From the NCBI RefSeq assembly GCF_024700885.2, contig NZ_CP117016.1: DNA of 64,000 nt. One strand, written 5' to 3'. Source of the DNA: Escherichia coli. Its GTDB lineage: Bacteria > Pseudomonadota > Gammaproteobacteria > Enterobacterales > Enterobacteriaceae. The notes beneath the pieces are model-generated. The model did no database searches, was not told where the DNA came from, and was given only the letters and a program-made list of their open reading frames with translations. This document shows, piece after piece, positions 36,670-36,801 of this stretch (positions are counted from its first letter, which is position 1; each line of letters begins with the position of its first letter). Both the position numbers and the translations under genes were made by a program.

Positions 36670-36801
36670 TCAAATTATTTTATTAAGTGTAAAACAGTTA
36701 ACGACTATCGCAGCCTGGAACTGCGATAACAACCCATAAGCACATGGATTTTCCAGCAGTGAATGCTGACGCTCCAACTGCGCAACCGGTTTCTTTTTCA
36801 T
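36670..36801 (-). CDS. yqgB: small protein YqgB (43 aa)
   Basis: not in ORF track; hand translation gives [43 protein letters not shown], immediately upstream of speA. Confidence 0.7.

Follow-up and report, generated by a model that had tools for sequence, protein, structure and literature searches.

The question raised by this locus is what the short open reading frame (ORF) lying directly in front of speA does: whether it encodes a working small protein, or whether its translation serves speA in cis. The window analyzed here is a stretch of 64,000 nt from the Escherichia coli contig NZ_CP117016.1, and within it the ORF (ATG to TGA, 43 sense codons plus the TGA, confirmed by translation) occupies positions 36801..36670 on the minus strand, upstream of the biosynthetic arginine decarboxylase gene speA (34685..36661, also on the minus strand; taken from the ORF list, where the listed ORF begins at an upstream TTG, and from RefSeq). 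The speA start ATG (MSDDMSMG...) is at 36661..36659 on the minus strand, at an offset of 9 from the stop of the upstream ORF, with the 8 bases GGTTCGCT (36669..36662) between the two. An earlier note, made from the sequence alone, had the coordinates, the 43-codon length and the 9-nt offset to speA all correct, leaving only the strand unstated, and its recognition of the ORF as YqgB is borne out by the RefSeq annotation and by family models: the RefSeq label here is "yqgB: acid stress response protein YqgB", as it is in all 12 E. coli records listed, and the translation matches NCBIfam NF033844 (small_YqgB; 90.1 bits, cut-off 35, covering residues 1–40 of 40) and Pfam PF11036 (113.3 bits, cut-off 24, covering residues 1–43 of 43). 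With the same full-length match, the length of 43 aa and the place directly before speA, the protein belongs to this family, and its sequence is no different from it. The implication that the ORF had gone unannotated was mistaken, as RefSeq, Pfam and NCBIfam all carry it under the name yqgB; it is a known gene, and nothing in the ORF itself is new. Its absence from the ORF track is likely due to a length cut-off, the mechanical ORF list having only a 48-aa GTG-extended version (36670..36816), and this only at a 20-aa threshold. With as many as 95 ORFs of 20 aa or longer overlapping a 6-kb stretch here, a bare 43-codon ORF is not beyond chance, and the significance of this one derives only from its conservation. 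Within E. coli, the 601 bases around yqgB are found in 5425 of 5426 complete genomes, with an identity of 99% or higher in 5414, and the upstream neighbors in RefSeq are yqgG, yqgD and then the divergent metK.

The junction between the two genes is tight. The yqgB stop TGA (36672..36670) overlaps the speA Shine-Dalgarno (SD) GAGG (36671..36668), giving a TGAGG at 36668..36672 on the minus strand, and TGAGGTTCGCTATG is invariant or nearly so throughout alignment A1. The speA SD (GAGGU, with a 5-nt spacer) looks adequate alone. The yqgB AUG has no recognizable SD and is followed by A-rich codons. We also observed a three-codon mini-ORF, ATG-TTA-TGA (36798–36806, minus strand), whose stop overlaps the yqgB ATG (ATGA), and whose own ATG is present in about 90% of the aligned species. 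A motif, TGTTTTACA, considered as a repeat standing before both yqgB and speA was discarded, being present in the E. coli window in a single copy, as often as expected by chance.

For the comparative analysis we gathered 80 species-representative loci from about twenty genera of Enterobacteriaceae by a match to the SpeA N-terminus and not to YqgB. Every locus with sufficient upstream sequence (78 species loci plus the RefSeq control L001, 79 in all) carries a homologous ATG-initiated ORF, in each case directly upstream of speA on the same strand, and the same position holds for 8 diverged members of the family. Among the 75 unique sequences the yqgB frame is open from its ATG to the speA start region in every one, whereas the other two sense frames are open in none and in two (with a mean of 3.6 and 2.4 stops, respectively) and each of the antisense frames in none. 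Even in the AT-rich tail following codon 37 all 75 sequences have the yqgB frame open, the other two frames being open in 55/75 and 19/75.

The position of the stop is conserved as strictly as the frame. The yqgB ORF always ends on one of two TGAs, at -11..-9 or at +5..+7 relative to the speA ATG: in 51 sequences the stop overlaps the speA SD, and in the other 24, about a third of the species, it lies within speA codons 2–3 (ATGTCTGA, yielding peptides that end in ...EVRYV). In the window this second TGA is at 36656..36654, beside the speA ATG (the two together spanning 36654..36661, minus strand). The length from the yqgB ATG to TGAGG is correspondingly 0 modulo 3 in 51 sequences, 2 in 24 and never 1; the third frame, which would fuse the yqgB ORF to SpeA, occurs in 0/75. 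This location has been kept despite repeated frame switches, tails of 3–146 nt and hairpin-like insertions, while the protein itself ranges from 38 to 91 aa and has a C-terminus that varies by frame between genera. The most diverged members, those of Cedecea, Shimwellia, Mangrovibacter and Buttiauxella, are still found directly before speA, and their yqgB still ends on the TGA within speA, even where speA codon 2 differs. An exhaustive profile search identified only 34 matching clusters in 1.84 billion representatives. A set of 132 profile hits belonged to Enterobacteriaceae genera with two exceptions, labelled Vagococcus sp. WN89Y and Stenotrophomonas sp. MY15, both names probably being wrong; by the taxonomy of its profile hits, the YqgB family is restricted to the Enterobacteriaceae.

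Species-specific insertions of 6–129 nt are found in the 3' part of yqgB, within the conserved block UCGUUAACUGUUUUACACUU, between AACTGTTT and TACACTT. In several genera (loci L012, L018, L034, L037, L051, L061, L070, L071, L080, L081 and L085) these are insertions of 20–129 nt flanked by the inverted repeat ATACCC...GGGTAT; they look like hairpins or small mobile elements, and none of them closes the yqgB frame. A different kind of expansion is seen in Pluralibacter gergoviae (L083, at about 795–830), in which a GCGATAGTA..CT block is tandemly duplicated, adding 11 codons and keeping the frame. We also noticed YqgB variants in single E. coli, Shigella and Salmonella genomes (P0005, P0008, P0091 and P0118) that resemble compensated double frameshifts, with 6–10 residues scrambled before the frame is restored. 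These are rare, and could be real or could be assembly errors; as they were found via annotation, and are hence subject to ascertainment bias, we dropped them as evidence.

The pattern of substitution within yqgB contrasts with that of speA in the same genomes. Across codon positions 1/2/3 the entropy runs 0.59/0.60/0.56 in yqgB as compared to 0.15/0.11/0.84 in speA, the yqgB substitutions showing no codon periodicity, and the overall pN/pS is 0.92 for yqgB as against 0.05 for speA. Separating the variable codons of yqgB from those in its conserved blocks gives pN/pS values of 1.15 and 0.47, respectively. Synonymous divergence within the conserved blocks is only 0.13 as compared to 0.53 in speA, and codons such as GGG TTG TTA TCG and GCG ATA are invariant even at their 4- and 6-fold degenerate sites; because the nucleotides are frozen at degenerate sites as well, the invariant residues of YqgB cannot be credited to the peptide. 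The conserved nucleotide blocks coincide with predicted RNA stems (see below). From these comparisons the YqgB peptide appears to be under almost no selection at the amino acid level and to evolve near-neutrally, with room for some peptide-level constraint in the conserved blocks (pN/pS of 0.47), where V33 and V34 vary mostly synonymously. While the names given to the family imply a working protein, the comparative data show little amino acid selection.

This bears on the reading implied by those names, in which YqgB is a trans-acting small protein (an "acid stress response protein" or "virulence promoting factor") and its adjacency to speA reflects co-expression, a reading that we consider unlikely. 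The acid stress name traces to Hobbs, Astarita and Storz in 2010; a bar-coded yqgB deletion was reportedly acid-sensitive. A tagged YqgB has been treated as experimentally validated, yqgB deletion mutants have been reported to be sensitive to acid and to colistin, one paper describes the binding of a small molecule to YqgB, and the lower pN/pS of the conserved blocks along with the mostly synonymous variation at V33/V34 is in keeping with a functional peptide. However, a protein acting in trans fits poorly with the overall and variable-codon pN/pS values, the lack of codon periodicity, the range of lengths, a C-terminus read in different frames in different genera, and residues whose invariance lies at the nucleotide level. 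In an overexpression screen YqgB grouped with the aggregation-type inducers of heat-shock proteins and not with the arrest-like cold-shock class, which also argues against a trans-acting protein. In addition, a 2026 paper on a Salmonella yqgB deletion found speA and speB mRNA, arginine decarboxylase and spermidine all to be lower, with the phenotype offset by arginine or polyamines, as expected of an effect in cis; the words "complement" and "polar" are absent from the text of that paper.

A consensus fold predicts an RNA domain within yqgB (36731..36791, minus strand) composed of an outer stem H1 (AACC/GGUU), an inner stem H1b and a hairpin H2 (CAGCA/UGCUG). In these consensus stems 98% of cells are paired, as against 30–48% when the 3' partners are slid by 1–3 columns, and H1b shows covariation, with pair 36:73 being AU in 44 sequences and GC in 14. 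The minimum free energy z-score of the yqgB RNA is -2.9 for E. coli and -1.45 for Citrobacter, and the two share the architecture. An inner helix specific to E. coli (UUGG/UCCA) was rejected, being out of register across species, with 77% of cells paired and many pairs broken. Further downstream, yqgB codons 25–33 are predicted to form a consensus hairpin H3 (UAUCGC/GCGAUA, UUAUCGCAG..CUGCGAUAG; 36705..36729, minus strand), and codons 33–39 contain the conserved block UCGUUAACUGUUUUACACUU (36685..36704, minus strand), seen in the alignments. The arms of H3 are invariant in A1, and its 11-nt apical segment takes 44 distinct forms, which fold more stably than shuffled copies of themselves (-9.4 as compared to -7.8 kcal/mol, with 33 of the 44 more stable, Wilcoxon p = 4e-5, uncorrected for phylogeny); in the most diverged genera the 5' arm changes with no compensation while TGCGATAGT stays fixed.

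The bases of H3 overlap a candidate sigma-70 promoter of the extended -10 type (36704..36732, minus strand; identified by reading the sequence), made up of a -35 TTGTTA (36732..36727), a 17-nt spacer, a TG (36712..36711) and a -10 GATAGT (36709..36704). It matches the consensus at 8 of 12 positions in addition to the TG, and falls below the threshold of the scanning tool. The TTG of the -35, the TG of the extended -10, -11A and -7T are invariant even in diverged genera, and the spacer is always 17 nt. A literature search for a mapped speA promoter or transcription start site returned nothing usable, and a sigma-54 site mentioned along with yqgB in PMC4591121 is about 5 kb distant and irrelevant here. 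Part of the nucleotide conservation in yqgB may reflect promoter DNA and not RNA; the candidate promoter cannot explain the open yqgB frame.

These observations also bear on the reading of the yqgB ORF as incidental, its conserved bases being RNA structure and/or the internal sigma-70 promoter TTGTTA-N17-TGcGATAGT, and its translation irrelevant. Conservation at the nucleotide level, key promoter positions that are invariant in diverged genera where the 5' arm of H3 is uncompensated, the fixed 17-nt spacer and the missing SD of yqgB all lean this way. Nevertheless we hold this to be very improbable: it leaves unexplained a frame open in all 75 sequences when the others are open in 0–2, as well as the avoidance of stops both in the AT-rich tail and across insertions as long as 146 nt. 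Moreover, the promoter is sub-threshold, the apical part of H3 covaries, and Northern data have been read as showing a yqgG-yqgB-speAB transcript (Adams et al. preprint); an internal promoter and a translated upstream ORF (uORF) could in any case coexist.

We therefore arrive at a reading that we think somewhat probable from the comparative sequence evidence, that yqgB is mainly a cis-acting translated leader, or uORF, of speA, and not a peptide under selection. It is favored because the open frame and the lock on the stop are strictly conserved while the peptide is near-neutral. Under such a mechanism, ribosomes would start at the SD-less yqgB AUG, traverse a structured part of the long speA leader and terminate on a UGA at the speA initiation region, which in E. 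coli overlaps the SD 8 nt before the AUG and in other genera lies 4 nt inside speA. Termination at this place could lead to re-initiation on the speA start, or to some other control of access to it, and the cover of ribosomes up to speA might lessen early Rho-dependent termination just inside the gene. The dependence of speA translation, or of read-through of the transcript, on the translation of yqgB is inferred, as is the direction of any such effect.

The arrangement is like that of coupled uORFs acting by termination and re-initiation: relative to the first base of the AUG, the yqgB stop lies either 8 nt ahead, where it overlaps the SD, or 4 nt past it, and the position of the stop is conserved when the peptide tail is not. 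It differs from them in that a structure sequestering the ribosome binding site (RBS), which is a common form of such coupling and not an obligatory one, is not supported at yqgB-speA. RNAalifold had proposed such a helix, H4, in which yqgB codons 33–37 would pair with the speA SD, the spacer and the AU of the AUG (GUAGUcAACU : GGUUcGCUAU). We rejected it: in nine species the energy of the H4 duplex was no better than that of dinucleotide shuffles, and changes in the speA spacer of Buttiauxella, K. cowanii, Cedecea, Shimwellia and Mangrovibacter were accompanied by no compensation in the putative partner. As the shuffle and covariation tests both failed, RBS sequestration is unsupported as the mechanism. 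The suggestion in the earlier note of translational coupling or a leader role for speA thus holds up in part, in that the frame is open in the whole set, the stop sits on the speA start and selection on the peptide is weak; the sequestering helix, the one structural mechanism examined, found no support.

Published data agree with a leader role, because yqgB appears as a validated uORF candidate, a Rho-dependent RNA end lies just inside speA, and deletion of yqgB lowers speA and speB. The deletion, being one of the whole gene, does not tell translation apart from RNA or DNA elements, and its phenotypes could come from the removal of RNA or promoter elements rather than from lost translation. 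Adams et al. (PMC7815308) placed yqgB-speA among the candidate uORFs that are experimentally validated but uncharacterized and are followed within 200 nt by an RNA 3' end. The supplement to that study places a Rho-dependent 3' end, flagged "uORF", 57 nt into speA (K-12 position 3085854; Rho score of 3.09, scored "Yes"), which by the offset between the speA ATG at 3085911 and at window position 36661 maps to 36604 on the minus strand. This end falls between the primary speA start and an internal start at Met27 (ATG 36583..36581, minus strand; region 36581–36595), which has a strong SD, AGGAGG, that is stronger than the GAGGU of the primary start, and which has been reported as an alternative initiation site yielding a shorter SpeA isoform. 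By INRI-seq the yqgB start codon was picked up in vitro but was undetectable in vivo, which the authors blame on low abundance. Weak translation of yqgB in vivo, if real, makes a large coupling effect harder to argue.

The same study lists yqgB-speA alongside mdtU, and there are clear likenesses to mdtU-mdtJI and speFL-speF, each a small ORF in the leader of a polyamine operon with a Rho-dependent premature 3' end downstream. Such same-pathway precedents raise the idea that yqgB encodes a metabolite-sensing arrest peptide, with a polyamine, arginine or agmatine stalling the ribosome near the stop and so setting Rho-dependent termination in speA. We judge this quite improbable, even with the "uORF"-flagged 3' end in speA and the invariant UGA stop counted in its favor. 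While the MdtU and SpeFL peptides are described as conserved, notably at the C-terminus of MdtU, the YqgB tail that would be nearest to the peptidyl-transferase center varies in sequence, length and reading frame, and with a pN/pS of ~0.9 selection at the amino acid level, as a conserved peptide would show, is not seen. The aggregation-type behavior of YqgB in the overexpression screen is not that of the translation-arrest class, and the UGA would be invariant in any case, since it overlaps either the SD or codons of speA. Classical attenuation of the kind known from trpL, pheL and hisL was also considered, as yqgB is likewise a short ORF within a structured leader, and was rejected: unlike those leader peptides YqgB has no regulatory run of codons, with one Arg codon and no repeats, and a terminator scan found no terminator-like site between yqgB and speA, the only one being upstream of yqgB.

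That site is a stem-loop followed by a U-run between yqgG and yqgB (36853..36879, minus strand), beginning about 15 nt past the yqgG stop and having the sequence GCTCTTGT-AAAA-ACAAGAGT followed by TTTCTCGTGG. Its arms are CTCTTG/CAAGAG or CTCCTG/CAGGAG across genera around variable loops, and at pair 21:32 we counted 28 sequences with UA and 14 with CG, none being broken. Published Term-seq 3' ends include none listed at this stem-loop, and an Rfam scan of 36500–37500 returned nothing meaningful, the best match being to a eukaryotic snoRNA with an E-value of 1.7. The clean covariation of this stem-loop, together with the RNA stems in yqgB, places yqgB within a long, structured and conserved leader. 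Judging by a cloning primer used by Adams et al., the speA leader starts at about window position 37159 and is therefore roughly 500 nt long.

The leader holds another small gene further upstream, yqgG (47 codons, 36895..37038, minus strand; RefSeq, and a match to Pfam PF23505 of 130 bits), which is intact in most of the Enterobacteriaceae sampled and missing or disrupted in about ten species, with a conserved C-terminal motif of 17 residues; its conservation may partly be at the RNA level too. Two further ORFs lie nearby. The yqgD gene (37149–37400, minus strand, as annotated in a RefSeq O157 genome) is frameshifted here by a one-base T8 to T7 change in a T-run near 37258, which suggests that it is not under coding constraint. 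The 71-codon yqgC (36937–37152) is on the plus strand, antisense to yqgG, and a published ribosome-profiling study found it to have neither ribosome density nor detectable tagged protein.

Returning to yqgB as a cis-acting translated leader, we tentatively extend the proposal, in a form that may well prove wrong, to the whole region: yqgB would functionally be no protein gene but a regulatory uORF in a conserved, structured leader of ~500 nt comprising yqgG, the covarying stem-loop and yqgB, in which polyamine or arginine status sets speA expression via the coupling of translation to Rho-dependent termination, and the acid, virulence and colistin phenotypes would be cis effects on arginine decarboxylase. 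What this analysis of about 80 Enterobacteriaceae speA loci adds to the known gene is interpretive. YqgB is an acid stress protein in the databases, and a study of 2026 has made the peptide a target of drug screening; by our comparisons, however, it is the peptide that appears near-neutral and the frame and stop position that are strictly kept. Should yqgB prove to be a regulatory uORF, drug design against a "YqgB protein" would be misdirected; if yqgB acts in cis, its phenotypes would be those of reduced arginine decarboxylase, and the leader would offer a concrete, mutable handle on the long-standing question of how speA expression is tuned beyond the initiation of transcription.
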